In this document: positions 9,364 to 19,661 of the stretch, piece after piece | Layout of the letters: each line of letters begins with the position of its first letter | How positions within the stretch are numbered: position 1 is the stretch's first letter | Source of the DNA: a virus | Taxonomy: Duplodnaviria > Caudoviricetes | Length of the DNA: 55,764 nucleotides | Strand: one strand, 5' to 3' | IMG/VR virus record: IMGVR_UViG_3300006927_000008 | Coordinates: 1-55,764 of that record | Made by a program: the position numbers and the translations under genes | The notes under the pieces: generated by a model | Databases searched by the model: none | The model's input: only the letters and a program-made list of their open reading frames with translations | What the model was told of the DNA's origin: nothing

Positions 9364-9416
9364 GACGTCTCCCTAGTTAGTGTACCAATCGTTTCTGATT
9401 CACCTCGCCGCAGTAA

Positions 9417-9495
9417 TGGTGGGCACAGCAGGACTCGAACCTGCGAATCTCCTCCTTGTAAAAGAGGCTCCATAGCCGCTAGGAATTATGCGCCC
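9417..9495 (-). tRNA. tRNA-Val(TAC)
   Basis: Cloverleaf, loop TT-TAC-AA, TTCGAGT T-loop, CCA. Confidence 0.85.
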
Positions 9496-9508
9496 GAATT
9501 AAGAATTC

Positions 9509-9703
9509 TCATACTATCGTTGGGAAGGGCATTCCCACCTTTGGACATAGATCATTATATGCTTCATACAATCTATTTAACTCTTCCCTGATCAACATCA
9601 TTTCTGATTCAGTGAGCTGATAACCAAAGGACTTGTTTTTCGATTCATCATATGATCGAAACAATCTCTGTAGCTCTTCCACATTAGTCGATTTGTCTAC
9701 CAT
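9509..9703 (-). CDS. small hypothetical protein between tRNAs
   Basis: GAAAGGTT RBS immediately after the upstream tRNA CCA. Confidence 0.6.
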   Translation of the reverse strand: MVDKSTNVEELQRLFRSYDESKNKSFGYQLTESEMMLIREELNRLYEAYNDLCPKVGMPFPTIV

Positions 9704-9719
9704 TGAGAACCTTTCATTA

Positions 9720-9795
9720 TGGTGGCCCTGAAGGGAGTCGAACCCTTACTGAACACGTTTTGAGTGTGCTGCCTCTTCCATTGGGCTACAGGGCC
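9720..9795 (-). tRNA. tRNA-Leu(CAA), short variable loop
   Basis: Loop CT-CAA-AA, CCA. Confidence 0.85.
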
Positions 9796-9821
9796 ATGTA
9801 ATAACTATTCTGTTAGTAATA

Positions 9822-9898
9822 TGGTACACGCGATGGGAGTCGAACCCACATTAGCCTGACTGAGAATCAGGGGTCCTAGACCATTAGACGACGCGTGC
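9822..9898 (-). tRNA. tRNA-Glu(CTC)
   Basis: CCTGA-TTCTCAG-TCAGG, CCA. Confidence 0.9.
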
Positions 9899-9904
9899 AT
9901 ATTA

Positions 9905-9981
9905 TGGTGGGCCCTCTGGGACTTGAACCCAGGACCAATCGATTATGAGTCGAACGCTCTAACCAGCTGAGCTAAAGGCCC
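9905..9981 (-). tRNA. tRNA-Ile2(CAT), lysidine type
   Basis: GGGCCTTTAGCTCAG...GACTCATAATCG body typical of bacterial Ile2; CCA. Confidence 0.8.
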
Positions 9982-9993
9982 AGAATAATGATC

Positions 9994-10091
9994 GCTCTGA
10001 CCAGGTCGCTCGACGTTCGATATAGGAAGCCCTCCGGCACGTGCAGCCAAGCCTCCTTCAGTTCCCCTATTTGTCGCCCTCATTGCAGAGC
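9994..10091 (-). ncRNA. candidate rod-like structured RNA
   Basis: Nested helices GCTCTG/CAGAGC, CGAC/GTCG, ATAGG/CCTAT, GGC/GCC filling an inter-tRNA spacer. Confidence 0.4.
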
Positions 10092-10095
10092 AATA

Positions 10096-10172
10096 TGGCG
10101 GCCAATGAGGGATTCGAACCCCCAACCTACGGTTTCGAAGACCGTGGCTCTAGTCCATTGAGCTAATTGGCC
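10096..10172 (-). tRNA. tRNA-Arg(TCG)
   Basis: ACGGT-CTTCGAA-ACCGT, CCA. Confidence 0.9.
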
Positions 10173-10175
10173 AAG

Positions 10176-10253
10176 TGGTGGGGCAGGTGGGATTTGAACC
10201 CACTATCACTCACTTATAAGACGAGCTCCTATACCAGAATTGGAATCTGCCCT
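10176..10253 (-). tRNA. tRNA-Ile(TAT)
   Basis: CTCGT-CTTATAA-GTGAG, CCA. Confidence 0.75.
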
Positions 10254-10263
10254 ACATGTTCTA

Positions 10264-10339
10264 TGGTGGGGATGACGGGAGTCGAACCCGTAACACACAG
10301 ATTTTAAGTCTGCTGCCTCTTCCATTGGGCTACACCCCC
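10264..10339 (-). tRNA. tRNA-Leu(TAA), short variable loop
   Basis: GCAGA-CTTAAAA-TCTGT, CCA. Confidence 0.85.
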
Positions 10340-10340
10340 A

Positions 10341-10724
10341 TTATACTCGTGTCACCTTCTCTGTCTTATATATAGCACCAATGGTATCGAATTTGACAGA
10401 ACCTTGATATCTAATCAAAACAAGTACGTAATGTGAATCGATGCTGTGCCTTTTGAGCATATCGGCAAGCCACGGAGAAGTTTCAACCACCTTGTATGTC
10501 AAGCGATAATTACTAGACTCAGCCATTATAAATTCTTCACCAGGCTTCATATCCATAGCAGTAAGCGACTCTGGTTCTTGCTGTTCATATGAAAGTTCTG
10601 CTCCACATACGATACAAAAATTGTTTTTGCAGCCTTCGCAATAAGTCCTGCCACAACAAGAAACTTCTCTATACTTTATGGAACTTCCGTGTCTGTGTAA
10701 TGTACCAAGACCTTCATATATCAT
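10341..10724 (-). CDS. hypothetical protein with Cys-rich N-terminus
   Basis: 127 aa; AAAAGGTT RBS after tRNA. Confidence 0.6.
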   Translation of the reverse strand: MIYEGLGTLHRHGSSIKYREVSCCGRTYCEGCKNNFCIVCGAELSYEQQEPESLTAMDMKPGEEFIMAESSNYRLTYKVVETSPWLADMLKRHSIDSHYVLVLIRYQGSVKFDTIGAIYKTEKVTRV

Positions 10725-10743
10725 GACATAACCTTTTATGAAA

Positions 10744-10820
10744 TGGTAGGGGATGCTGGATTCGAACCAGCGACCACCGGTTTAGAAGACCGGTATTCTA
10801 GTCCACTGAATTAATCCCCC
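10744..10820 (-). tRNA. tRNA-Arg(TCT)
   Basis: CCGGT-CTTCTAA-ACCGG, CCA. Confidence 0.9.
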
Positions 10821-10997
10821 AATATATTCTTCGTTGTATGCGAGGCTATAATGGACTTCCTTTATTTCCCATCCTTATGTATATCTATAATCCACAACGG
10901 TGTAAAAGTATACCAAAACCTGCTTGAGAACCATTGTTTAAGCCGCTTTACAGAGGCTCTAAGAGCATTGAATCTCTGCTCCACATGAATATATGGA

Positions 10998-11072
10998 TGG
11001 AGCCAGCAGTGGGATTCGAACCCACGATCTCCCGATTACGAAACAGGTGCTTTATCACTAAGCGATGCCGGC
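10998..11072 (-). tRNA. tRNA-Thr(CGT)
   Basis: Loop TT-CGT-AA, GCC/GGC-T-CCA acceptor. Confidence 0.85.
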
Positions 11073-11079
11073 ATTAATA

Positions 11080-11172
11080 TGGAGGACCAGAAGGGAATCG
11101 AACCCTCAATGTGTCGTTAACTGTTGCTAGGTTAAAAGCCTAGTGCTGACAACCACTATCAGCGTCTGGTCC
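11080..11172 (-). tRNA. tRNA-Lys(TTT) with long variable region
   Basis: CTAGG-CTTTTAA-CCTAG, about 19-nt variable region, CCA. Confidence 0.7.
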
Positions 11173-11173
11173 A

Positions 11174-11284
11174 CAGTGATAAAGTCGCCAGCGCTGGTGC
11201 TTGTTATCCAGCTTTCGGCTCGGTGACGTCTGCAGTACGTCCAAGCAAGGCAGATCATAGTTCATCCTGAATCTGAAGTCACTG
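11174..11284 (-). ncRNA. candidate multibranch structured RNA
   Basis: CAGTGA/TCACTG closing helix with CAGAT/ATCTG, TGCTTG/CAAGCA, GACGT/ACGTC and AGC-CGAAA-GCT inside. Confidence 0.45.
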
Positions 11285-11291
11285 GCTATTA

Positions 11292-11363
11292 TGGTTGCAG
11301 GACTGGGTTTCGATCCCAACGTCTCGGGGTTATGATTCCTGAGTGGTCGCCAGACCTCCTGCA
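11292..11363 (-). tRNA. divergent initiator-like tRNA-Met(CAT)
   Basis: TGCAGG...CCTGCAACCA acceptor, CAT loop, tiny D arm, mismatched anticodon stem. Confidence 0.5.
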
Positions 11364-11639
11364 TCAATTTTAGTATACCGAGAGTTCTCTGTTTCCACGT
11401 ACAGGGACCGCGGGTTGCACGTGACACAAGACCATTCCGCTTGCGGGCGGGAGAATGTAAGGGCGGTAATCGCATCTACATAGCTTCGAAACTACGATCA
11501 TCTCGGTAACATCATTTACAAAAACAATGAAACAATAGATCCAATACTGAATGCAACTCCAGCACAAAGTGGGAGATATCAAACACCACAGAAATCATAG
11601 AATCTATCATTCAAACTATCTTGTTCCACTAGAGCCTCC

Positions 11640-11909
11640 TTACGGTTTAAACTTCTTCACGACTGTTGTCACGACCTCAGCTTCGTCAATGATATGAGGA
11701 TATAGATTTGCTGTATCCACAATGTCAAAAAGCTCAGCCATAATCTTCAAGTTCTCTTCATAAGTCCGTGTGGTCCATTGGTCCATAAACCATTTGATCT
11801 CTGCTTCATCACAACCACTCTGCTTCATAGCATTTCTGGCTGTGGCCATCAATACGAAAGCATTTCCATCAGGACCTGAAAGATCGATGATTAACTGAGG
11901 CTTATTCAT
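11640..11909 (-). CDS. phage hypothetical protein (GPDGNAF motif)
   Basis: GAAAGGTT RBS; IDLSGPDGNAF motif I recognise from phage proteins. Confidence 0.7.
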   Translation of the reverse strand: MNKPQLIIDLSGPDGNAFVLMATARNAMKQSGCDEAEIKWFMDQWTTRTYEENLKIMAELFDIVDTANLYPHIIDEAEVVTTVVKKFKP

Positions 11910-11927
11910 TGTAACCTTTCTTTGTTA

Positions 11928-12107
11928 TGGCGCAGTGGGGAGGAATCGAACCTATATCATTTCGCTATTACCTGTCGGCAATCCGCCATCGCAGGGGTCA
12001 TATGTATTTCTCTACTGACGGAAAGTAGATTCACATACGAACTGATATAAAATGATAGCCGACCTTCTCATAGATAATGAGGCGCTCTACCACTAAACTA
12101 CCACCGC
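11928..12107 (-). tRNA. tRNA-Asp-like (anticodon ATC) interrupted by a 105-nt structured insert in the T-stem
   Basis: Removing 11954-12058 restores GCGGTGG...CTCA-TTATCTA-TGAG...GGAGG-TTCGATT-CCTCC-CCACTGC-G-CCA. Confidence 0.7.
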
Positions 12108-12115
12108 ACAAAATA

Positions 12116-12193
12116 TGGTACACGTGAGGGGACTCGAACCCCCATCGACGAGAGTGAAAATCTCGCATCCTAGTCCAATTAGACGACACGTGC
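12116..12193 (-). tRNA. tRNA-Glu(TTC)
   Basis: CGAGA-TTTTCAC-TCTCG, CCA. Confidence 0.9.
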
Positions 12194-12200
12194 ATATTAA

Positions 12201-12306
12201 CTAGCGAGGTTCAAAAGGTATCTCGAGATTTCCTCTATTCCCCCTTACCAACGACTTAATCCTTCAGGGATTCGAACCCTATTTTCCCCCTCACGGCAAC
12301 ATCCCC
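12201..12306 (-). ncRNA. candidate T-arm-containing non-tRNA RNA
   Basis: AGGG-TTCGAAT-CCCT hairpin inside a GTGAGG/CCTCGC helix; no CCA or anticodon arm. Confidence 0.4.
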
Positions 12307-12310
12307 ATTA

Positions 12311-12387
12311 TGGTGGGCGCCAAGGGTAACGATCCCTTTATCTTCCGCGTATCAGACGGAGGCATTTACCATTTATGCTAGACGCCT
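12311..12387 (-). tRNA. tRNA-Ile(GAT)
   Basis: TCCGT-CTGATAC-GCGGA, CCA; atypical T-loop ATCGTTA. Confidence 0.8.
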
Positions 12388-12445
12388 ACAGTACTTTTTC
12401 TTGCCTTGCCAACCCCAACTCTCTGTCTTAGAACCTTTCATATTA

Positions 12446-12519
12446 TGGCGGAACCGAGGGGCCATGATCCCCCACCTACTCCCGTGACAGGGGAGTGCTC
12501 TACATTAAGCTACGATTCC
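12446..12519 (-). tRNA. tRNA-Asp(GTC)
   Basis: CTCCC-CTGTCAC-GGGAG, G73, CCA. Confidence 0.85.
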
Positions 12520-12769
12520 ATTTTCTTTATCAATTTACTGTATCGTCTCTATGTGTCGAGTCGATAGTCAAATCTCTTTTGCAATGTTGGTCATCAGTCT
12601 GCCGAAGAGCTATGGCAGTTCTGCCTCTTTTCAAAGTGTATGGTGTATAGTTACCACCATATTTTGACCAAGTGAATTTGTCTCCTTTATATGGGAGACG
12701 TTTAACTTCTACAGTATCCATGATTATTCTCCTTACAACTAATATAATCAATTTCTGGACAATTGTAAA

Positions 12770-13201
12770 CTACTTTGCATCTTTTGTGCCATAGACGATA
12801 TGACCCATATAGATCTGGATGATGAAGAAGAATCCGGTTACGAACCAGCCGGCAGCGGCCATCAATGTAACAATGCCGATATCATAAGTTATGTCAACCC
12901 AACGTGGAACTGGGCGAGCGCAGGCCATTTTCCGAAACACCTCCAGTATCGCCTCTTTCTTCTTTTTGATATCATCTGTCTCATTAAATCCGGTAGTTTC
13001 TTCTTCTACCAGGTGGGCAATTAACTTCGCAAAACCTATCATACCACCAACGATGATGGATATGAAGATTGTCCACCAAGCATATAGCCAAGCTATATTG
13101 CTAGCCCAACCTATATCATATACTGTCCCTGCGACCATCGAGGCGGCGAATAATGTATTCATAACTACCCACCTGAAAGCTTTACCTTTTTTCTTAGCCA
13201 T
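12770..13201 (-). CDS. hypothetical membrane protein
   Basis: 143 aa, 3-4 hydrophobic segments; GAAAGGTT RBS after tRNA-Ser. Confidence 0.7.
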   Translation of the reverse strand: MAKKKGKAFRWVVMNTLFAASMVAGTVYDIGWASNIAWLYAWWTIFISIIVGGMIGFAKLIAHLVEEETTGFNETDDIKKKKEAILEVFRKMACARPVPRWVDITYDIGIVTLMAAAGWFVTGFFFIIQIYMGHIVYGTKDAK

Positions 13202-13216
13202 TCCAACCTTTCTGTA

Positions 13217-13305
13217 TGGCGGAGAGCCAGGGAATTGAACCCTGTGTGCCTTTTACAACACGACAGTTTAGCAAACTGCTTAGCAGACCAAATGCAATGC
13301 TCTCC
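13217..13305 (-). tRNA. tRNA-Ser(GCT)
   Basis: Loop TT-GCT-AA, long variable arm, G73. Confidence 0.85.
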
Positions 13306-13312
13306 ATTATTA

Positions 13313-13403
13313 TGGCGGAGGCGTAGAGAATCGAACTCTAGACGCAGTGTTTGCTACGCAGCCGGGTTCAAACCGGTGTCCTCGTCCATGCCGGACCACC
13401 TCC
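13313..13403 (-). tRNA. tRNA-Ser(TGA)
   Basis: Loop TT-TGA-AC, long variable arm, G73. Confidence 0.85.
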
Positions 13404-13422
13404 ATTTACAATCTTTCTTAAA

Positions 13423-13497
13423 TGGCTCCTGCCCAGGGAGTCGAACCCCGAACCGGTCGGTTAACAGCCGACTGCTCTGCCATTGAGCTAGACAGGA
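13423..13497 (-). tRNA. tRNA-Asn(GTT)
   Basis: GTCGG-CTGTTAA-CCGAC, TCC/GGA-G-CCA. Confidence 0.9.
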
Positions 13498-13505
13498 TCA
13501 TGTAG

Positions 13506-13582
13506 TGGCTGGCCTCCAAGGATTCGAACCTTGAATCGACGCCTTCAGAGGACGTTGCATTAGCCGGTTATGCTAGAGGCCA
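13506..13582 (-). tRNA. tRNA-Gln(CTG)
   Basis: Loop CT-CTG-AA, U1-A72, CCA. Confidence 0.85.
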
Positions 13583-13588
13583 TCATTC

Positions 13589-13966
13589 TTACAGCAGTGG
13601 TAGATCTCCAATCAACTGCTTGATCAAGTCTGAATCACATGGACCAAGTGATACACCAACCAAAGTATCTACGATAATCTTGTTCGAGTCCGATACGTTC
13701 ATCTGAACCGTATCAGTCCACTTATAACGAGGCACCTTACCGTCAGGATCGCGGCTGATGATATCTTCAAGGACCTCTCTGTTCGGCACCTTATGGACGA
13801 AGATGTATGGATCAGTCAGCCACGGCAAAAATTCATGCCATTCTTTTGGGTCCATAATCTGCTGCCTCATACACTCAGCATGGATATGAGCCACTTGTGC
13901 TGCCATCAACCCTGGAGTAAAACCAAGGTCAGTGCGGATCAGGATACTCTGTCGCAGGTTTGCCAT
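13589..13966 (-). CDS. pth2: peptidyl-tRNA hydrolase, Pth2 type
   Basis: QSILIRTDLG.TPGLMAAQVAH and TLVGVSLGP...IGDLPLL match the Pth2 family pattern. Confidence 0.8.
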   Translation of the reverse strand: MANLRQSILIRTDLGFTPGLMAAQVAHIHAECMRQQIMDPKEWHEFLPWLTDPYIFVHKVPNREVLEDIISRDPDGKVPRYKWTDTVQMNVSDSNKIIVDTLVGVSLGPCDSDLIKQLIGDLPLL

Positions 13967-14131
13967 TTATTCGTCCACCTCCGTGTAACCCTTCTTGTGC
14001 TTCTGCTTTCGAGAATAATGCTGACGATCTCCCTTGGAAGCGTGTGGCTGAGTTGCTCTTCCACCCTGGCCTCTGCGAATCTGTCGTCTGAGTTCCTCGT
14101 AATCGATACCAACTGCGTCCATGGTCTTCAT
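13967..14131 (-). CDS. 54-aa basic peptide with ArfA-like YxRKxKHK motif
   Basis: Translated by hand: MKTMDAVGIDYEELRRQIRRGQGGRATQPHASKGDRQHYSRKQKHKKGYTEVDE; own promoter (14162-14190) and CAGGA RBS. Confidence 0.5.
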   Translation of the reverse strand: MKTMDAVGIDYEELRRQIRRGQGGRATQPHASKGDRQHYSRKQKHKKGYTEVDE

Positions 14132-14195
14132 GGTTTTTCCTGTGTAAAAGTGTGTAGTCTAAATATAACCATTTGTACTGCGATTGTAAAGGCTT

Positions 14196-14597
14196 TTATA
14201 TATAATCTTCAACCCCTTTTTCATCACCATCATCTTCGAGGCAGTTCCAGGGAGTGGAACCATACCACTGTGGGTGCTCTTTCAGATAATCACCATCCAC
14301 TTCGACAACATCGACCTCGCCTGGGCCCGTGAGCCCGAATTCCTCGTGCAAATATTCATGTCGAGCGAAGTGTTCGGCTTGGGCTGGATTTTCTGCAACC
14401 ACTGCAGCCTTGACGATTGTTGATACCATGAAACACTTCAACGACGGTTCGGCTGGTGTGAGCGCCTCATCTTTGGCTGGAATCGATGCGATCAGCTTAT
14501 CCCTCTCTTCAGGGTCGAGTGACGCGATCCACTCCAATGCAACCTGCTCAAATGCCTTCACGTAATTTGCATCCTCCGTATCAGTAGCCATTTTCAA
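14196..14597 (-). CDS. acidic hypothetical protein
   Basis: 133 aa in a minus-strand operon. Confidence 0.6.
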   Translation of the reverse strand: MKMATDTEDANYVKAFEQVALEWIASLDPEERDKLIASIPAKDEALTPAEPSLKCFMVSTIVKAAVVAENPAQAEHFARHEYLHEEFGLTGPGEVDVVEVDGDYLKEHPQWYGSTPWNCLEDDGDEKGVEDYI

Positions 14598-14599
14598 TC

Positions 14600-14782
14600 C
14601 TATGATTCGGGTCCGAGGAATAATTCATCCCAGCAGGCGTCGGAGCACATCCCCGAAATCCACTGTTCGACATCCATGCTCGTTCCGTAGATCGATGCGA
14701 GCTCATGGGTCTCAAAAGTTGGAACGTATTCACGCCCGCAGTGAGGACACTTAAGAACCGCATTCAATTTCGTTTCAACCAT
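14600..14782 (-). CDS. small zinc-finger-like protein
   Basis: CPHC...CSDAC; GGAGG RBS; promoter at 14816-14844. Confidence 0.6.
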   Translation of the reverse strand: MVETKLNAVLKCPHCGREYVPTFETHELASIYGTSMDVEQWISGMCSDACWDELFLGPES

Positions 14783-14897
14783 TGTGCCTCCATATCCATT
14801 AAACCTTACATACTAAATATAGGCAATTTTGAGGGTATCGTAAACGTCTTTTCGGAACTAATTAACCTGTCGTAAATCCAATGTTTATGATGACTTA

Positions 14898-14971
14898 TGG
14901 AAGCCCCCGAGGGATTTGAACCCTCACCCAGCACGTTCAAAGCGTGCCTATGCTACTTACACCAAGGGGCT
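14898..14971 (-). tRNA. tRNA-Gln(TTG)
   Basis: GCACG-CTTTGAA-CGTGC, CCA. Confidence 0.85.
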
Positions 14972-14974
14972 ATA

Positions 14975-15055
14975 TGGTCGGGTGCTCAGGAATCGAACCT
15001 GGCTAGCGCAAGCGCTGGAGGGTTACAGCCTCCAATGTATCCCAGTACTCACCCG
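14975..15055 (-). tRNA. tRNA-Tyr(GTA) with C1:G72
   Basis: GGAGG-CTGTAAC-CCTCC, long variable arm, CGGGTG/CACCCG-A-CCA. Confidence 0.75.
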
Positions 15056-15058
15056 TTA

Positions 15059-15136
15059 TGGTGCTCGATGTAGGACTCGAACCTACGAAATCACCTGTAT
15101 GTCAAACAGGTCCCTTAGCCACTAGGGTAATCGAGC
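15059..15136 (-). tRNA. tRNA-Val(GAC)
   Basis: CCTGT-TTGACAT-ACAGG, CCA. Confidence 0.9.
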
Positions 15137-15139
15137 ATA

Positions 15140-15224
15140 TGGTGCTCATGACTGGATTCGAACCAGCGATCCCGAAGGAACAACGCCCTCAACGTTGCGC
15201 GTATACCAGTTTCGCCACATGAGC
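15140..15224 (-). tRNA. tRNA-Leu(GAG)
   Basis: CAACG-TTGAGGG-CGTTG, long variable arm, CCA. Confidence 0.9.
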
Positions 15225-15228
15225 ATAT

Positions 15229-15450
15229 TCATGATATTTCAGGTGTATGCATCTTTTCATCATACGGATATATTTCAAAGAAGTACGAAAATCCTTTGTA
15301 CTCAATTGCATAATCCAATATGGCCTTACATACGACCTTATTATAGAACTCTTCTATAGTCATCGAAGGAGTGAGAGTACCGCCTAACTTTCTGGCGAGA
15401 TCTATCTCATCACGTATCTTCGACTTCCTTGTCATTGAGAGTCTATACAT
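15229..15450 (-). CDS. small hypothetical protein
   Basis: AAAGGT RBS after tRNA-Thr. Confidence 0.55.
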   Translation of the reverse strand: MYRLSMTRKSKIRDEIDLARKLGGTLTPSMTIEEFYNKVVCKAILDYAIEYKGFSYFFEIYPYDEKMHTPEIS

Positions 15451-15472
15451 TTATTACCTTTATTCAAATAAA

Positions 15473-15549
15473 TGGAGCCGTAGGTGGGAATCGAACCCAC
15501 GATCTCTTCCTTACCAAGGAAGCGCCCTCACCTTGAAGACCTCTACGGC
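15473..15549 (-). tRNA. tRNA-Thr(GGT)
   Basis: CTTCC-TTGGTAA-GGAAG, CCA. Confidence 0.85.
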
Positions 15550-15665
15550 AATTTGTAGATATCGTTCTGTCGAATATAGTCATAAACACCAGCAGAAAGT
15601 AGATGTCTAATGCTGAGACCTTTTCAATTCTATCTCGTACCTCTGATGAAGAAACCTCCATTATG

Positions 15666-15738
15666 TGGTAGCCCTGGAGGGAGTTGAACCCCCTAGCTCT
15701 GGTTCGTAGCCGAAGCGCCTCAATCCCTAGGCAGGGCT
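15666..15738 (-). tRNA. tRNA-Arg(ACG)
   Basis: Loop CT-ACG-AA, CCA; weak D arm. Confidence 0.75.
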
Positions 15739-15836
15739 ATAGTCAATATCGAACTCAAACAGTTTTTAATGCAATTGGCCTGAAAAATTAATTCAGTTGA
15801 TACTCAGAGCCACGTAGAGGCTTGCATTGTTCTGAG

Positions 15837-15914
15837 TGGTTGACCGACGGGACTCGAACCCGCATACTCTCGATTCACAGTCGAGAACCTTAATTCCTTT
15901 AGGCTACGGTCAAC
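15837..15914 (-). tRNA. tRNA-His(GTG)
   Basis: CTCGA-CTGTGAA-TCGAG. Confidence 0.85.
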
Positions 15915-15942
15915 ACGGGTGAGGGAATTGAATCCCTCAATA

Positions 15943-16015
15943 TGGCACGGGTAGTAGGTATCGATCCCACTGCGATCGGGTTTGGAATCCAATCCGCTGG
16001 CCACAGCTTACCCGT
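15943..16015 (-). tRNA. tRNA-Trp(CCA)
   Basis: Loop TT-CCA-AA, G73, CCA; short D arm. Confidence 0.7.
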
Positions 16016-16190
16016 ATATTTCTATTTGATTCTCTGCTCTTTTCTTGGTACCGCTACTTCATCTCTCTTAAAGAAGAAAACATATCCACCGTAAAGTAAG
16101 ACAGCGGCAATACCAAGATACAACATCACATCACTTCCACCGCCACTTACTCCAACCGTTACTCCTTCAGTAACTCCATTCATAACCATA

Positions 16191-16267
16191 TGGTGCCCAT
16201 GGTAGGATTCGAACCTACAACACACAGCTTCTAAGGCTGCTGTCTCTTCCAATTGGACTACATGGGC
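16191..16267 (-). tRNA. tRNA-Leu(TAG), short variable loop
   Basis: GCAGC-CTTAGAA-GCTGT, CCA. Confidence 0.85.
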
Positions 16268-16272
16268 ATATT

Positions 16273-16459
16273 AAAGCGGAGCTCTATTCCATTAGGCCAT
16301 CACACCCGAAACGGACAGAATTGAAACACTGAAAACGTGATAAGCGAATCAGACGTTCAATTCCCCTCCTATCATTTGAAGCATCCGGATGGTGGCCGGA
16401 ATCTCTTGGCGAGCGAAAGTCGCCAAGGCTCTGTCTACCGATATTTGAGCTATGCTTCA
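16273..16459 (-). ncRNA. tRNA-like cloverleaf (16377-16459) with a 3' extension able to refold it
   Basis: TGAAGCA/TGCTTCA, GCTC/GAGC, CTTGGCGA-CTTTCGC-TCGCCAAG, TCCGG-CCACCAT-CCGGA; no CCA. Confidence 0.55.
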
Positions 16460-16462
16460 TAA

Positions 16463-16554
16463 TGGCTGGGGAAGTAGGACTCGAACCTACGTACCGTTTT
16501 CAACCGGTCGACCGCATTAACAGTGCGGGGCATTGCCAACTCTGCCACCTCGGT
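16463..16554 (-). tRNA. chimeric long-variable-arm tRNA with Asn(GTT) anticodon and non-pairing acceptor stem
   Basis: CCGCA-CTGTTAA-TGCGG; last 28 nt identical to the tRNA at 16701; 5' ACCGAGG does not pair with TTCCCCA. Confidence 0.55.
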
Positions 16555-16684
16555 ATATTTCTGTGTCTTCTTCAAGATCAATTTCATGACCACATTTGCA
16601 TCTGAAGTATCTGCCAGTGTCATCAACTCTTCGGTGACGATGGATCCAGTCTTCGTGGAAATTGCAGCCTTGATCTTCTTTCAT
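16517..16684 (-). CDS. 55-aa His/Cys-rich peptide
   Basis: GAAAGGTT RBS; MKEDQGCNFHEDWIHRHRRVDDTGRYFRCKCGHEIDL...; stop falls in the next tRNA anticodon loop. Confidence 0.45.
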   Translation of the reverse strand: MKEDQGCNFHEDWIHRHRRVDDTGRYFRCKCGHEIDLEEDTEIYRGGRVGNAPHC

Positions 16685-16700
16685 GATAACCTTTCAATAA

Positions 16701-16778
16701 TGGCTGGGGAAGTAGGACTCGAACCTACCTCATTTCCGGTTAACAGCCGGACGCTATCGCCTGGACAGCTCTTCCCCA
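16701..16778 (-). tRNA. tRNA-Asn(GTT)
   Basis: TCCGG-CTGTTAA-CCGGA, G73, CCA. Confidence 0.85.
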
Positions 16779-16786
16779 ATATATTA

Positions 16787-16863
16787 TGGTCAGGGTGGAA
16801 GGATTCGCACCCTCGGCTTCCTCGCCCCAAACGAGGCACTCTACTGGACTGAGTTACACCCTG
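16787..16863 (-). tRNA. tRNA-Pro(TGG)
   Basis: CCTCG-TTTGGGG-CGAGG, C1-G72, CCA. Confidence 0.9.
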
Positions 16864-17240
16864 ACGTATTCTTGTATAATACTCTCAACTAGAGAGCGGT
16901 GCTTCGAATGATAGTACTGATGATGGTTTGGACAAATTGGAACCAAATTCTTTGGGTCGTGATTTGTTTTATCGCCATCTGCATGATGAACCTCCACTGC
17001 AAGTTCTTCGCCGCATACTATACATTTCTTTTCATGGTGTGCAAAACATATCTTCCTATAGTTCTGGCCTTTCCAACAGCCATTATTTTCTCCACTACGA
17101 AAATATTTATTGGAACAGGCATAACCACATGTCTGCTTCTCTTTAGGACAACCTTTTTTTGCTTCAAATTCATCCCCACAAACCGGACAATTCTTCTTTA
17201 TCCACGGATACTGTGGGTTCTTCGTATATTGATTGGCCAT
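16854..17240 (-). CDS. HNH homing endonuclease
   Basis: CPVC, CGYAC, CIVCG, EVHHADGDKTNHDPKNLVPICPNHH. Confidence 0.85.
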   Translation of the reverse strand: MANQYTKNPQYPWIKKNCPVCGDEFEAKKGCPKEKQTCGYACSNKYFRSGENNGCWKGQNYRKICFAHHEKKCIVCGEELAVEVHHADGDKTNHDPKNLVPICPNHHQYYHSKHRSLVESIIQEYVRV

Positions 17241-17310
17241 TGCATTCCCCTTTCGCAATAAATATCATTGCCTAAGGTTTGGAATACATCCAAATCAATA
17301 GCACATATTA

Positions 17311-17385
17311 TGGAGGCCCCGTTGGGAGTCGAACCCAATAGGAAATCGCTTTGCAGGCGACCCGCTTGCCGTTGGCTTCGGAGCC
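17311..17385 (-). tRNA. tRNA-Cys(GCA)
   Basis: Loop CT-GCA-AA, U73, CCA. Confidence 0.85.
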
Positions 17386-17417
17386 GAATATTTAGGTTAC
17401 TTTATCATCCGTCCTTT

Positions 17418-17582
17418 GGCCACCACAGCCGCAGGGTTGAGAATCAATTTCGCCTGAGGTTGGACGTCATTCACTGGTTAGGATCCTAACTACTCAGCCT
17501 CAAATCGTGTGGATCAAGGGACTTAAACCCTTGTAGAGGAGATACATCCTCCATTGCATCGTAGCAATTAACTACGGTGGCC
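17418..17582 (-). ncRNA. candidate multibranch structured RNA with T-loop-like hairpin
   Basis: GGCCACC/GGTGGCC closure; CAAGGG-TTTAAGT-CCCTTG; GAGGA/TCCTC; TGAGGCTG/CAACCTCA; GTTAGGATCCTAAC palindrome. Confidence 0.5.
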
Positions 17583-17603
17583 GCTATCATGGCATCCCAA
17601 TTA

Positions 17604-17676
17604 TGGTGGAGAGTGGGAGAATCGAACTCCCATGGCTTCGGTGCAAGCGAGGCGTGTGACCCATCAGCAACTCCCC
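17604..17676 (-). tRNA. tRNA-Ala(TGC)
   Basis: Loop CT-TGC-AC, G3:U70, CCA. Confidence 0.85.
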
Positions 17677-17748
17677 AAATTTCGAGAGATAAGATACCGA
17701 AATATCTAATAGGCGTCCCTATGACAAAATTATCTCCCTCGTCCTGTA

Positions 17749-17842
17749 TGCTCTCTGTCAGGGTGGCAGGATTCGAACCTGCGTATTCTCGATTCCAGGT
17801 CGAGACGATAGCCGGACTTTCGTTACACCCTGACAGAGAGCA
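17749..17842 (-). tRNA. tRNA-Pro(TGG)-like with acceptor stem extended to 17 bp and no CCA
   Basis: CTCGA-CCTGGAA-TCGAG; TGCTCTCTGT-CAGGGTG/CACCCTG-ACAGAGAGCA. Confidence 0.6.
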
Positions 17843-17861
17843 CAACATATCCGTCGTAAAA

Positions 17862-17924
17862 TGGCCAGCAGATAAACATCGAAGAATAGGGTCATGAGCC
17901 CCGAGGGTCTTTCCTCGTCCGCTA
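17862..17924 (-). pseudogene. degenerate initiator-like tRNA-Met(CAT) lacking the T-stem
   Basis: TAGCGGA/TCTGCTG-G-CCA, GGG-CTCATGA-CCC, unpaired TTCGAT. Confidence 0.45.
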
Positions 17925-17927
17925 GTA

Positions 17928-18003
17928 TGGAGCCGTCTCTCAGATTCGAACTGAGTATCTCTACTTTACAAGAGTAGCGCAAATCCTAATTTGCTTAGAC
18001 GGC
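17928..18003 (-). tRNA. tRNA-Thr(TGT)
   Basis: CTACT-CTTGTAA-AGTAG, CCA. Confidence 0.85.
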
Positions 18004-18076
18004 AAGTTTGCCAGGTGTCCTATACTTAGACGATAGACTGCGAGCTAGGCATTTCTCCTAACATTTCCTGGACCAA

Positions 18077-18151
18077 TGGAAGCGGGCGAGGTTGCTGCCA
18101 CCTCTAGCTACCCGGATTATGAGTCCGGGAGGATCACTGGATCTACCCGCG
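18077..18151 (-). tRNA. tRNA-Met(CAT), initiator-like, atypical T-loop
   Basis: CGCGGG start with 1:72 mismatch; CCGGA-CTCATAA-TCCGG; CCA. Confidence 0.65.
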
Positions 18152-18191
18152 GATCGTACTGTGACATTACATCCGCCACGTCTTAAGTGCC

Positions 18192-18319
18192 TGAAGATGT
18201 GGAGTCGAACCACTTGCGAACCTGCTCGGCCAGCGTCCTTTGACGGAGCCTCTGAGGAATCGAACCTCTTTCATCCCGTGTCCGCGGAGACATTAGGGAA
18301 ACCACCAACGGCGTCTTCA
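18192..18319 (-). ncRNA. tRNA-like RNA with two T-arms
   Basis: TGAAGA/TCTTCA closure; GAGG-TTCGATT-CCTC and GTGG-TTCGACT-CCAC. Confidence 0.55.
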
Positions 18320-18324
18320 AAATA

Positions 18325-18400
18325 TGGAGGGGTATACGGGAATCGAACCCGTCTATCTTGGTTGGAAGCCAAGCATCTTATACCGATGGATCAATACCCC
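18325..18400 (-). tRNA. tRNA-Gly(TCC)
   Basis: CTTGG-CTTCCAA-CCAAG, U73, CCA. Confidence 0.9.
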
Positions 18401-18407
18401 AAAACTA

Positions 18408-18470
18408 TGATGGAGATGGATGGGAATCGAACCCGCGTCTTCCGGTACTCTGCCACTGAGTTACCATCCC
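18408..18470 (-). ncRNA. tRNA-like RNA without anticodon arm
   Basis: GGGATGG-TA-ACTC-AGTGGCA-GAGT-ACCGGAAGAC-GCGGG-TTCGATT-CCCAT-CCATCTC-CATCA. Confidence 0.6.
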
Positions 18471-18476
18471 ACTTTA

Positions 18477-18552
18477 TGGTGGAGGCCCCGGGAATTGAAC
18501 CCAGTTGTCTGGTACTTCAAGCCAGCGCATTGACCACAATTGCTTGACCTCC
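18477..18552 (-). tRNA. tRNA-Phe(GAA)
   Basis: Loop TT-GAA-GT, A73, CCA. Confidence 0.75.
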
Positions 18553-18889
18553 AAATCTCTTTTTGATCCTCAAGCCCCACCATCAGATCATCCAGATTCA
18601 GGATTTCTGGTTGCATGGCAACCACATCAGATGCTTGCACCCGATGTCCTCAGGTTCTCACGTCTATGCTCGAGGCCCACCCAGTAAGAGGTTGAGCGCC
18701 TCTTTACTTCTTAGTCGGAATATAGGACGCTATCGCCCTTCATTTCCTTTCGAACCACTTCAGAGCGGTACTTGTTCACGTCCTGTTTTCCATGTCGTTC
18801 GAACATTCGATGCCAGAACTCCAATTCGGTACTGGACATCTTCCTCACCTGGGACTGCCAGGATTCAACCTTCATGTAGAACCTTTCGC

Positions 18890-19096: not shown

Positions 19097-19309
19097 TTCC
19101 TCTATCCTCTGTCAGTGTCTACCAAAACCTTATACTATAAATATAGGCAATTTCTGGGATATCCTAAACGCTTTTTCGAAACTAATTGAGGACCCTCTCT
19201 AAGTCCAATAAAAGCCCTCTAGAACCCTGCTTTTGAGCGCTCTAGAGCTGATTCTAGAGCTCCGAATCAGGCTCCCCGATGTTTCACCCATGGCTGACAT
19301 CAGGGCAAT

Positions 19310-19341
19310 AAAAAAGGGGAGAAACCGTATGGTCTCTCCCC
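19310..19341 (-). terminator. intrinsic terminator (putative attenuator)
   Basis: GGGGAGAGACC-ATAC-GGTTTCTCCCC-TTTTTT. Confidence 0.9.
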
Positions 19342-19365
19342 GCTTATCTGAAATTCAGAGTGGAG

Positions 19366-19491
19366 CTAAACCATAGTATTCTCGACGATGGCATTCTTAC
19401 TATCATGACATACATAGCCGAGGGCGGGCTGTAAGCGTTCGAGCCACAGTCCGGATTCTATCAGCGTTGATGTAAATTGAATAGTAAGCAT
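19366..19491 (-). CDS. 41-aa putative attenuator leader peptide containing all 20 amino acids
   Basis: TAAGGA RBS; MLTIQFTSTLIESGLWLERLQPALGYVCHDSKNAIVENTMV; last codons complementary to the terminator 5' arm. Confidence 0.65.
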   Translation of the reverse strand: MLTIQFTSTLIESGLWLERLQPALGYVCHDSKNAIVENTMV

Positions 19492-19508
19492 TTCTGAATT
19501 CCTTATAA

Positions 19509-19544
19509 TGGAGCCAGGCCATCCGCGTTAACGAACAACCCGGC
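19509..19544 (-). ncRNA. 36-nt acceptor-stem mini-helix ending in UCCA
   Basis: GCCGGGTTGTTCGTTAACGCGGATGGCCTGGCTCCA. Confidence 0.45.
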
Positions 19545-19552
19545 ATATGTTA

Positions 19553-19622
19553 TGGTGGCGAAGGCTGGTATCGCTCCAGCATCTTGTCCGAAAACCGTTC
19601 TATTATATTAAACTACCTCGCC
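19553..19622 (-). ncRNA. tRNA-like RNA with the anticodon arm replaced by a UUCG hairpin
   Basis: GGCGAGG/CTTCGCC-A-CCA, D arm, GTT-TTCG-GAC, GCTGG-AGCGATA-CCAGC. Confidence 0.65.
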
Positions 19623-19632
19623 ATACGAAGTA

Positions 19633-19661
19633 AATATAGGCCAAGAATGGCTATTTGTAAA
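19633..19661 (-). promoter_or_regulatory. sigma70-like promoter at the head of the tRNA array
   Basis: TTTACA-N17-TATATT, about 10 nt upstream of the first tRNA-like RNA. Confidence 0.75.

Follow-up and report, generated by a model that had tools for sequence, protein, structure and literature searches.

The head of the tRNA array in this phage genome carries a compact minus-strand cassette, which we interpret as a constitutive short transcription unit doubling as an operon boundary. This is the best explanation of the locus, and we give it a probability of somewhat less than one half (about 0.45). The window, the whole stretch of DNA analysed, is the 55,764 nucleotides of virus record IMGVR_UViG_3300006927_000008. 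A sequence-only reading had taken the same cassette for an attenuator that senses the decoding of all 20 amino acids; a translation-coupled attenuator of any kind, this sensor included, is possible but unlikely in our judgment, and the evidence gathered here is compatible both with a switch that responds to slow decoding and with an ordinary short transcript at the head of the tRNA array. Every element listed in that reading was found on the minus strand where it had been placed:

19661-19633, minus strand: promoter P1, with TTTACA (19661-19656), a 17-nt spacer and TATATT (19638-19633)
19622-19553, minus strand: mini RNA 1, tRNA-derived by sequence, with a 7-bp acceptor stem, D arm, T arm and A73-CCA, the anticodon arm missing
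19544-19509, minus strand: mini RNA 2, a CCA-tailed minihelix made of a 14-bp hairpin with 6 G-U pairs, then UCCA
19505-19500, minus strand: ribosome-binding site (RBS) TAAGGA, Shine-Dalgarno-like, with the ATG 8 nt further on
19491-19366, minus strand: ORF41, 41 codons plus TAG, a short ORF with an RBS between promoter and terminator
19341-19310, minus strand: intrinsic terminator, with an 11-bp stem (7 G-C), a 4-nt loop and T6 at 19315-19310

From these parts and their order, which are observed, we infer a simple course of events. P1 would yield an RNA of ~310 nt whose 5' part consists of two CCA-ending tRNA-like modules, and the tRNA-processing enzymes that mature the array tRNAs would cut out both. 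The 3' part would carry ORF41, which may be translated, given its good Shine-Dalgarno motif, or may be a chance frame, and would end at a terminator that presumably works constitutively. This terminator would also halt transcription arriving from the HD-phosphohydrolase gene upstream, and the array proper would be transcribed from a second, putatively active promoter, P2, together with internal promoters. On such an account the content of ORF41 and its pairing with the terminator arm, both described below, would be coincidences. A strong P1 serving a single 310-nt RNA implies that this RNA needs a function, which we count against the account.

The P1 promoter motif was confirmed, with 10 of 12 consensus matches in a sigma-70 scan. 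The sequence-only reading had cautioned that further promoters lie downstream, and promoter-like sites of the P1 motif family are indeed present at 19169-19140, 14844-14816, 14190-14162 and 12769-12741. In the sigma-70 scan TTTACA-N17-TATATT recurs at 14190 and 12769, with a TTTACG variant at 14844, and copies of a promoter repeat family occupy 19133-19169, 14809-14845 and 12734-12770. The TAAGGA ribosome-binding site ahead of ORF41 was likewise confirmed, and a comparable motif precedes 32 of the 51 long ORFs in the window, several of them having TAAGGAG.

Judged by its sequence, mini RNA 1 truly derives from a tRNA. We built a covariance model (R1) from 27 of the 32 ARAGORN tRNAs of the array, and mini RNA 1 matched it over its full length at 39.2 bits (E 4e-10), with the acceptor stem, D arm, T arm and 3' CCA of a tRNA all present. 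It aligns 6 nt where the model has 13, the anticodon arm with its 7-nt loop being replaced by GUU-UUCG-GAC as read from the sequence. Neither ARAGORN, at its relaxed threshold included, nor the Rfam tRNA model (E <= 10) called it. Mini RNA 2 folds at -21 kcal/mol (z -4.46; 0 of 200 shuffles equally stable) and is weakly tRNA-like, scoring 5.2 bits against model R1 (E 0.31). Both mini RNAs finish with CCA and then UA or UU, as the array tRNAs do (CCA+TA in 20 of 32). We count the tRNA origin of mini RNA 1 and the array-like ends of both RNAs in favour of the short transcription unit.

The terminator had been called strong, and it is: a G+C-rich hairpin of -20.1 kcal/mol followed by a U tract, and the only strong one among the seven terminator-like sites scanned in the whole window. 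In the complete RNA it appears in every fold (-32.7 kcal/mol, vs -19.2 kcal/mol for the best terminator-free structure). Its strength, and its success in every complete-RNA fold, favour a unit with a constitutive stop. Beyond it lie the following features:

19305-19195, minus strand: three further hairpins, one on CTCTAGAG repeats, then GGCUUUUAUU
19169-19140, minus strand: promoter P2, GTTTAGG ... TATATT, starting 141 nt past the terminator, with ORF68 following
19096-18890, minus strand: ORF68, 68 aa, with a strong RBS and a gene-like coding score of 0.315
18875-18711, minus strand: ORF54, 54 aa, with a coding score of 0.11
18552-18477, minus strand: first canonical tRNA (Phe), ~760 nt beyond the terminator

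The 143 nt after the terminator fold at -49.3 kcal/mol (z -2.41). P2 scores under the threshold of the sigma-70 scan; it lies in a 63-nt block sharing 81% identity with an array promoter block at 14801-14863 (families D14, D15 and D19). ORF68 has no match in Pfam or PHROGs, and ORF54 has sub-threshold matches only. Where one transcription unit gives way to the next, a terminator and then a promoter are what one ordinarily finds, and the shared P2 block and the gene-like ORF68 fit such a boundary. The cassette does head the array, as the sequence-only reading held, but P2 and two small ORFs stand between its terminator and the first canonical tRNA. The claim that the array supplies tRNAs for all 20 amino acids holds loosely: ARAGORN at its default threshold finds 17 amino acids, and Lys, Trp and Cys have weaker support, Lys from Rfam (44.7 bits) and the relaxed ARAGORN threshold, Trp and Cys from the relaxed threshold only.

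The sequence-only reading proposed a pan-decoding leader-peptide attenuator, in which selection would have shaped ORF41 so that its codons cover every amino acid and many isoacceptors. We regard it as improbable. A ribosome following closely behind RNA polymerase would, on reaching codons 37 to stop, mask 19375-19362 and let the terminator form; delay at any earlier codon would leave an antiterminator free to form and let transcription continue through ORF68 and ORF54 to the tRNA genes. The trigger would be a cleaved or uncharged tRNA for any of the 20 amino acids, produced by a host anticodon nuclease or by starvation. Two features are central to this mechanism:

19375-19362, minus strand: TATGGTTTAGCTCC, candidate 5' strand of the antiterminator, comprising the last codons and stop of ORF41 and the next 4 nt
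19359-19347, minus strand: small hairpin TCTGA-ATT-TCAGA, between the ORF41 stop and the terminator

The complementarity on which the mechanism depends is real. The candidate strand can form 12 pairs with the terminator 5' arm and loop (19341-19328) at -10.8 kcal/mol, and the TCTGA/TCAGA hairpin lies between the pairing arms as had been described. Minimum-energy folding of the nascent RNA predicts the antiterminator, which is mutually exclusive with the terminator; the -10.8 and -20.1 kcal/mol of the two structures resemble the energies of the 2:3 and 3:4 hairpins of the trp leader. When the ribosome was modelled as a 28-nt mask in constraint folding, the antiterminator survived A-site positions from codon 1 to codon 36 and disappeared at 37-42 (12 predicted pairs in ribosome-free RNA and for codons 1-35, 10 for codon 36 and 0 for 37-42). 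Because all 20 amino acids of ORF41 have appeared by codon 33, all would fall inside the stall-sensitive stretch. The in-silico geometry of the pan-decoding attenuator therefore holds, and this folding check, proposed in the sequence-only reading, turned out as that reading expected: only a ribosome decoding codon 37 or later, up to the stop, is predicted to abolish the antiterminator. The 5' part of the small hairpin (19359-19352) has a second complement in AATTCAGA, which occupies 19500-19493 between RBS and ATG, so that the sequence after the stop can sequester the start region in the finished RNA, as has been described for the trp leader; among 200,000 natural window pairs, 0.5% contain an 8-nt complement so arranged.

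These structures weigh on both sides. Counted against a mere operon boundary are the extent of the pairing, which spans nearly the whole 5' arm of the terminator, the position of its upstream strand just where a terminating ribosome masks, and the complement between the start and post-stop regions. Counted against the pan-decoding attenuator is the 2-3% level of the pairing: an equally good alternative was found in 2.3% of shuffled sequences (n = 2,000) and in 2.9% of natural windows (n = 2,995), and three of the seven terminator-like sites in the window, 19341-19310 included, reached p <= 0.045 in the shuffle test. The thermodynamic dominance of the terminator in the full RNA also speaks against it, as does the want of a solid 1:2 or pause hairpin; in the 59 nt folded (-8.2 kcal/mol, z +0.18) we found no convincing pause or anti-antiterminator structure, only a weak CCAUC/UAUGG pairing. 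A further objection is that P2, two ORFs and some 760 nt precede the first tRNA, with more promoters inside the array. Read-through from P1 could nevertheless matter, because the -35 element of P2 is weaker than that of P1.

The case for selection on ORF41 comes from its content. As claimed, it uses 34 distinct codons and contains all 20 amino acids, the set being complete by codon 33, and the isoacceptor codons that had been listed for it are correct. Each amino acid occurs one to five times, and there is no run of any of them; the clustered regulatory codons of an attenuator are absent, and the hypothesis puts complete amino-acid sampling in their place. ORF41 is more diverse in codons and amino acids than random ORFs and gene segments of equal length, the outcome that the sequence-only reading had predicted for this comparison. 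All 20 amino acids are expected in 41 codons with a probability of 0.95% under the codon usage of the genes and 1.6% under an all-frame trinucleotide background, and they were found in 0.77% of 11,086 real 41-codon gene windows. For at least 34 distinct codons the corresponding values are 0.41%, 2.3% and 0.51%, high codon diversity thus being commoner in non-coding sequence, and for both features jointly they are 0.03%, 0.17% and 0.027%. Completing the set within 35 codons has a chance of 0.17-0.33%, and within 33 codons one of 0.07-0.15%, with 4 of 10,898 real gene windows doing so. All of these statistics are post hoc, chosen with the sequence already seen and calculated for one sequence, which counts against the pan-decoding attenuator. 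Among the 121 ATG ORFs of 35-50 aa in the window ORF41 is the sole frame with all 20 amino acids, and about one is expected, a point in favour of the boundary unit.

ORF41 also samples the array. By simple wobble rules its codons are read by 28 of the 33 array anticodons, a level reached by 1.1% of gene windows and 3.2% of background ORFs. This coverage and the good RBS support the pan-decoding attenuator. Exact Watson-Crick matches (17/33) are ordinary (P 0.31-0.54), and we rejected the idea that ORF41 is an exact-codon 'mirror' of the array anticodons; in addition, five of its codon uses (TCC, CCC, GCC twice and GGC) are unread by array tRNAs under the same simple rules. Both of these facts stand against pan-decoding selection. 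The coincidence within 190 nt of several low-probability features, among them the set of 20 complete in 33 codons, the 28 anticodons and the 8-nt complement, in turn stands against the short unit with a constitutive stop.

A different view of the same structures is that the cassette senses the timely arrival of a ribosome at the stop codon, as a general gauge of translation capacity, and that the presence of all 20 amino acids is due to chance. The structural evidence applies to it equally, and the predicted folding of ribosome-free nascent RNA into the antiterminator would make read-through the default, as befits a sensor of translational shutdown. There is a precedent in the bmrB leader of Bacillus subtilis bmrCD, which reportedly responds to any slowing of translation (PMC4191407). 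This view leaves the rarest observation, 20 amino acids in 33 codons, unexplained, and P2 limits the regulatory gain here too; we consider it very unlikely.

Whether ORF41 is translated at all bears on each of these explanations. Its coding score, 0.034 per codon, is below that of 98% of gene windows (mean 0.30, sd 0.13); 55 spurious ORFs have a mean of -0.14 (sd 0.14), and 9% of them outscore ORF41, so its score is intermediate and nearer the spurious ORFs. ORF41 is an orphan: searches of 5.8 billion and 1.84 billion proteins returned one 98%-identical cluster (P0001), and neither Pfam nor PHROG gave a match. A 1185-aa repeat protein (P0002) was rejected as an artefact; by BLASTP it shares only an 8-residue motif that recurs every ~92 residues, with E 0.28 each. 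The orphan status, the low codon score and a codon diversity typical of non-coding sequence agree with the boundary unit. They also agree with an ORF41 that is untranslated, the 3' two-fifths of the transcript being non-coding RNA or spacer and the two tRNA-like RNAs its only products. To this we attach a low probability, as a sub-case that overlaps the boundary explanation and adds nothing to its 0.45. The type and spacing of the RBS, which are those of the phage's well-expressed genes, argue for translation, and the frame is open in P0001 too, on 3 contigs, although these come from near-identical strains. The region also lacks any positive sign of RNA function: we rejected it as a decayed tRNA (no match to model R1), as part of a tmRNA (ARAGORN finds none, and the sole beta-tmRNA match, at 8.8 bits, lies over the mini RNAs) and as a structured RNA (z -0.36, with no Rfam family). 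The lack of excess structure in the ORF41 region is itself counted for the boundary unit.

Comparison with relatives was confined to near-identical strains. P0001 is a 41-aa protein that differs from ORF41 by V36A, the only non-synonymous variant seen, which breaks one pair of the weak upstream hairpin. The stretch is present in 22 marine metagenome runs, with no RNA run among them; contigs from three of the four runs examined cover parts of it, and by our own reading the single difference in ORF41 is 19432 T>C, which is synonymous. Neither variant is informative about an attenuator or selection. Searches of phages, viral contigs and metagenome contigs found no relatives more distant than ~98% identity. 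In blastn against phages, the locus and 4.8 kb of the array gave matches to single tRNAs only and none to the cassette, and the exact pattern of mini RNA 1 occurred 0 times in viral contigs. Relatives of the HD protein, at 35-45% identity, were found at 7 viral-contig and 12 metagenome loci, with no tRNA in the flanks examined. A search for relatives of ORF68 and of the 232-aa neighbour found none. For DnaE, a single tRNA-free locus showed 31% identity, and cultured phages stayed below 30%. Three single matches to the promoter-block pattern, all without tRNAs, were taken as chance.

The closest known designs are the leader-peptide transcription attenuators of enterobacterial amino-acid operons, trpL, hisL and the multivalent thrL and ilvL, most of whose leaders are shorter than 41 codons. 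Like the trpL/hisL type, the cassette has a promoter, a short ORF with an RBS, a terminator and an alternative hairpin that uses the terminator 5' arm, and a ribosome at the leader stop is predicted to cover the upstream strand of the antiterminator. Unlike that type, it has neither a codon run nor a convincing 1:2 pause or anti-antiterminator hairpin, two tRNA-like RNAs precede its ORF, and the small ORFs and tRNA genes downstream have their own promoter. The longer leader ORF is a likeness to bmrB, for which a published study describes ribosome-mediated transcription attenuation, shown with reporters and induced by ribosome-targeting antibiotics, in which rare codons influence the decision between terminator and alternative hairpin (PMC4191407). 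The bmrB decision reportedly depends on general translation speed, not on one amino acid, and its terminator lies inside the leader ORF (PMC4191407), whereas here the terminator begins 24 nt past the ORF41 stop.

Two other tRNA arrays offer comparisons. The trn operon of Anabaena sp. PCC 7120 is a long, stress-induced tRNA array, which is reported to be upregulated when translation is impaired (PMC8421152, PMC10272220) and to be controlled by the protein repressor TrcR (PMC10272220); in the 2021 paper on this operon 'attenuat', 'leader peptide' and 'terminator' have 0 occurrences. As an accessory array it resembles the one here, but it is cellular, not phage-borne. In Caulobacter phage phiCbK (NC_019405), predicted rho-independent terminators lie 11 and 22 nt before tRNA-Glu and tRNA-Pro, spacings too short to hold a promoter, which would make read-through obligatory; here, unlike in phiCbK, the terminator is followed by 141 nt and then P2. 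The second phiCbK terminator, before tRNA-Pro, comes after a 45-aa ORF. By plain count, Ser, Leu, Pro and Lys, for which the next tRNA block carries tRNAs, make up 23 of the 45 residues of this ORF, and Thr and Ala, which are absent from that block, make up 15. The two phages are unrelated, with no DNA match by blastn.

Phage tRNA arrays are increasingly seen as counter-measures to host defences that cut tRNAs. To our knowledge, how such arrays are controlled is largely unknown; our literature search found no published account of attenuation control of any tRNA array, and the one characterised stress-induced array, that of Anabaena, reportedly relies on a protein repressor. If all the cassette yields is a short RNA that always ends at the terminator, the locus would be ordinary except for its anticodon-less tRNA-like RNAs. 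If it is a pan-decoding attenuator, leader-peptide attenuation, which senses one to three amino acids, would be widened to all of them, and the phage would encode a sensor that registers failed decoding at any codon and answers it by replacing tRNAs from a near-complete set of its own, a connection between decoding and tRNA supply that is open to direct test.

The locus lies immediately upstream of the tRNA array and downstream of an HD-type phosphohydrolase gene, on a 55.8-kb viral contig of 26% estimated completeness whose sequence is present in many marine metagenome runs. The minus strand carries all long ORFs around it. Every element named by the sequence-only reading was found: a promoter (P1), two tRNA-like mini RNAs, a TAAGGA motif, a 41-codon ORF (ORF41, 19491-19366) and a terminator, beyond which lies a second promoter (P2).

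20277-19681, minus strand: HD-type phosphohydrolase gene (PHROG match, E 1e-18; weak Pfam HD match)
19661-19633, minus strand: P1 promoter, TTTACA-N17-TATATT
19622-19553, minus strand: mini RNA 1 (39.2 bits, E 4e-10, end-to-end match to the array-tRNA covariance model)
19544-19509, minus strand: mini RNA 2, a 14-bp hairpin ending in UCCA, six of its pairs being G-U (z -4.46)
19341-19310, minus strand: intrinsic terminator, 11 bp, 7 G-C pairs, T6 (-20.1 kcal/mol)
19195-19305, minus strand: three hairpins between terminator and P2 (143-nt fold, z -2.41)
19169-19140, minus strand: P2 promoter, within a duplicated 63-nt block

We read the locus, with a probability of roughly 45%, as a short constitutive transcription unit that doubles as an operon boundary. 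A translation-coupled attenuator, taking its pan-amino-acid and general-sensor forms together, would be somewhat unlikely; the rest of the probability falls to other readings.

The covariance model was built from 27 of the 32 array tRNAs, omitting the long-arm Ser, Ser, Tyr and Leu-gag genes and one Asn copy. Just six bases of mini RNA 1 aligned in the anticodon arm, and neither ARAGORN nor the Rfam tRNA model detected it; judged by its sequence, mini RNA 1 is a true tRNA derivative. Mini RNA 2 scored 5.2 bits and barely resembles a tRNA. Both end in the CCA-UA or CCA-UU trailer found behind real array tRNAs. Within the array (9400-18560, minus strand), 31 of the 32 ARAGORN tRNAs encode the CCA end and 20 have TA directly after it, mostly as TAAT or TATT; the CCA+TA trailer is possibly a shared 3'-processing signal. 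Between tRNA-Phe and tRNA-Gly (18412-18470, minus strand) is a further tRNA-like gene without an anticodon; it scores 39 bits with the Rfam tRNA model, lacks the entire 13-nt anticodon stem-loop and received no ARAGORN call.

The array spans about 9.4-18.6 kb, with 32 genes by ARAGORN and 30 tRNA matches by Rfam. The claim that it supplies tRNAs for all 20 amino acids stands if relaxed-threshold ARAGORN candidates are counted; the number falls to 17 without them.

11080-11172, minus strand: Lys-ttt candidate tRNA (ARAGORN relaxed threshold; Rfam 44.7 bits)
11292-11363, minus strand: Met-cat candidate tRNA (ARAGORN relaxed threshold only)
12020-12106, minus strand: Asp-atc candidate tRNA (ARAGORN relaxed threshold only)
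15943-16015, minus strand: Trp-cca candidate tRNA (ARAGORN relaxed threshold only)
17311-17385, minus strand: Cys-gca candidate tRNA (ARAGORN relaxed threshold only)

TAAGGA lies 8 nt upstream of the ORF41 ATG, and 32 of the 51 long ORFs have the same motif type. ORF41 has a codon score of 0.034 per codon. Gene windows average 0.30 (sd 0.13), and 98% of them score higher; the 55 spurious ORFs average -0.14 (sd 0.14), and 91% of them score lower. Protein searches returned no relatives except one 98%-identical cluster, on three contigs; a second match was rejected as a repeat artefact, and Pfam and PHROG searches gave no family. Natural variation (one synonymous change and one V36A) is too little to inform. 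With a codon score between those of gene windows and spurious ORFs, ORF41 may be a translated gene or a chance reading frame. A non-coding ORF41 is improbable, and forms a sub-case within the boundary-unit reading rather than an addition to it.

Under the pan-amino-acid reading, which we consider unlikely, a ribosome stalled at any ORF41 codon would permit an antiterminator and read-through toward the tRNA array. ORF41 has 34 distinct codons among its 41 and reaches the 20th amino acid by codon 33. We compared this with three nulls, namely gene codon usage, all-frame trinucleotide background and real 41-codon gene windows. In that order, the chance of 20 amino acids in 41 codons was 0.95%, 1.6% and 0.77%, and that of 34 or more distinct codons 0.41%, 2.3% and 0.51%. 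The claimed diversity is indeed rare, both features occurring jointly in 0.03%, 0.17% and 0.027% (0.027-0.17% across the nulls), for a statistic picked post hoc with the sequence already seen. All 20 are reached by 33 codons in 0.07%, 0.15% and 4 of 10,898 gene windows, and by 35 codons in 0.17%, 0.33% and 10 of 10,812. The window has 121 ATG ORFs of 35-50 aa, so about one all-20 case is the chance expectation, and ORF41 is the sole such case. High codon diversity is itself characteristic of non-coding sequence. Under simple wobble rules ORF41 samples 28 of 33 array anticodons (P 1.1%, gene windows; 3.2%, background ORFs), and five of its codon uses are unreadable by array tRNAs; counting exact Watson-Crick pairing alone, it matches 17 of 33, which is unremarkable. 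Elsewhere, a 60-aa ORF behind a duplicated promoter block (14600-14782, minus strand) has all 20 amino acids and 41 distinct codons. Its CPHC and other Cys residues resemble a small zinc-ribbon protein. The example shows that ordinary small ORFs of this phage can have all-20 content.

The terminator is the lone strong one among seven terminator-like sites in a whole-window scan. In the minimum-free-energy fold of the nascent RNA up to the terminator loop, UAUGGUUU..GCUCC (19375-19362) pairs with GGAG..AGACCAUA of the terminator 5' arm and loop, an antiterminator of 12 pairs (-10.8 kcal/mol) enclosing a small UCUGA/UCAGA hairpin. With a 28-nt ribosome mask, all 12 pairs were retained with the A site at codons 1-35, 10 at codon 36 and none at 37-42. 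The predicted masking near the stop therefore makes the proposed geometry self-consistent, and the stall-permissive part of ORF41 contains all 20 amino acids. The pan-amino-acid reading survives both tests run, the diversity statistics and the mask folding. In the complete RNA the terminator wins every time (-32.7 vs -19.2 kcal/mol), so any switch would be kinetic. Classical attenuators act by such a switch. Equal antiterminator pairing occurred in 2.3% of 2,000 shuffles and 2.9% of 2,995 natural 60-nt windows, and three of the seven terminator-like sites gave p <= 0.045 in the shuffle test; the pairing is therefore weak evidence. When the leader was folded, no upstream 1:2 hairpin formed convincingly. 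The RBS and the ORF41 AUG are separated by AAUUCAGA (19493-19500, minus strand), which is perfectly complementary to post-stop UCUGAAUU (19352-19359); among natural window pairs with this geometry, 0.5% show such a match. The helix is present in the whole-unit fold and could close the ORF41 start region in the finished RNA.

The context weakens a gate role for any attenuator, since hairpins, P2 and two small ORFs (ORF68, then ORF54) precede tRNA-Phe at 18552, and additional promoters lie within the array. The hairpins include three CTCTAGA-type palindromes (GCTCTAGA, GCTCTAGAGC and TTCTAGAG); one stem, followed by GGCUUUUAUU, is a possible back-up terminator. The 63-nt blocks (19125-19187 and 14801-14863, minus strand) are 81% identical and contain AATTAGTTYCGAAAA, GTTTAsG and TTGCCTATATTTA; a regulator might bind the conserved stretch ahead of the -35. 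A small ORF comes after each copy (68 aa and 60 aa, respectively). ORF68 has a strong RBS and a gene-like codon score (0.315). With P2 and the array promoters downstream of the terminator, P1 read-through could merely add to P2 output. The -35 of P2 is poorer than that of P1, so this context weakens the gate reading and does not refute it. A 63-aa ORF (12530-12721, minus strand) with an AAGGAG RBS sits directly behind a promoter (12769-12741), and 10 nt separate its end from tRNA-Asp, so mRNA-tRNA co-transcripts seem usual in the array.

DNA and protein searches of phages and of viral and metagenome contigs reached no relative other than near-identical strains, and we found no account in the literature searched of attenuation control for tRNA arrays, phage or cellular. 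The Anabaena trn array is under the repressor TrcR (PMC10272220), and PMC8421152 contains none of 'attenuat', 'leader peptide' and 'terminator'. An attenuator acting as a general translation sensor, which we hold very unlikely here, has a precedent in the bmrB leader, described as sensing general ribosome slowing (PMC4191407). In phiCbK (NC_019405, 46800-53000), rho-independent terminators are annotated ahead of tRNA-Glu and tRNA-Pro, at distances of 11 and 22 nt respectively, so that a promoter cannot fit between. In the 45-aa ORF gp335, which precedes terminator and tRNA-Pro, 23 of the 45 residues are Ser, Leu, Pro or Lys, the same amino acids that the following tRNA block carries. Read-through is thus structurally required for tRNAs in phiCbK, whereas at the present locus it is not.
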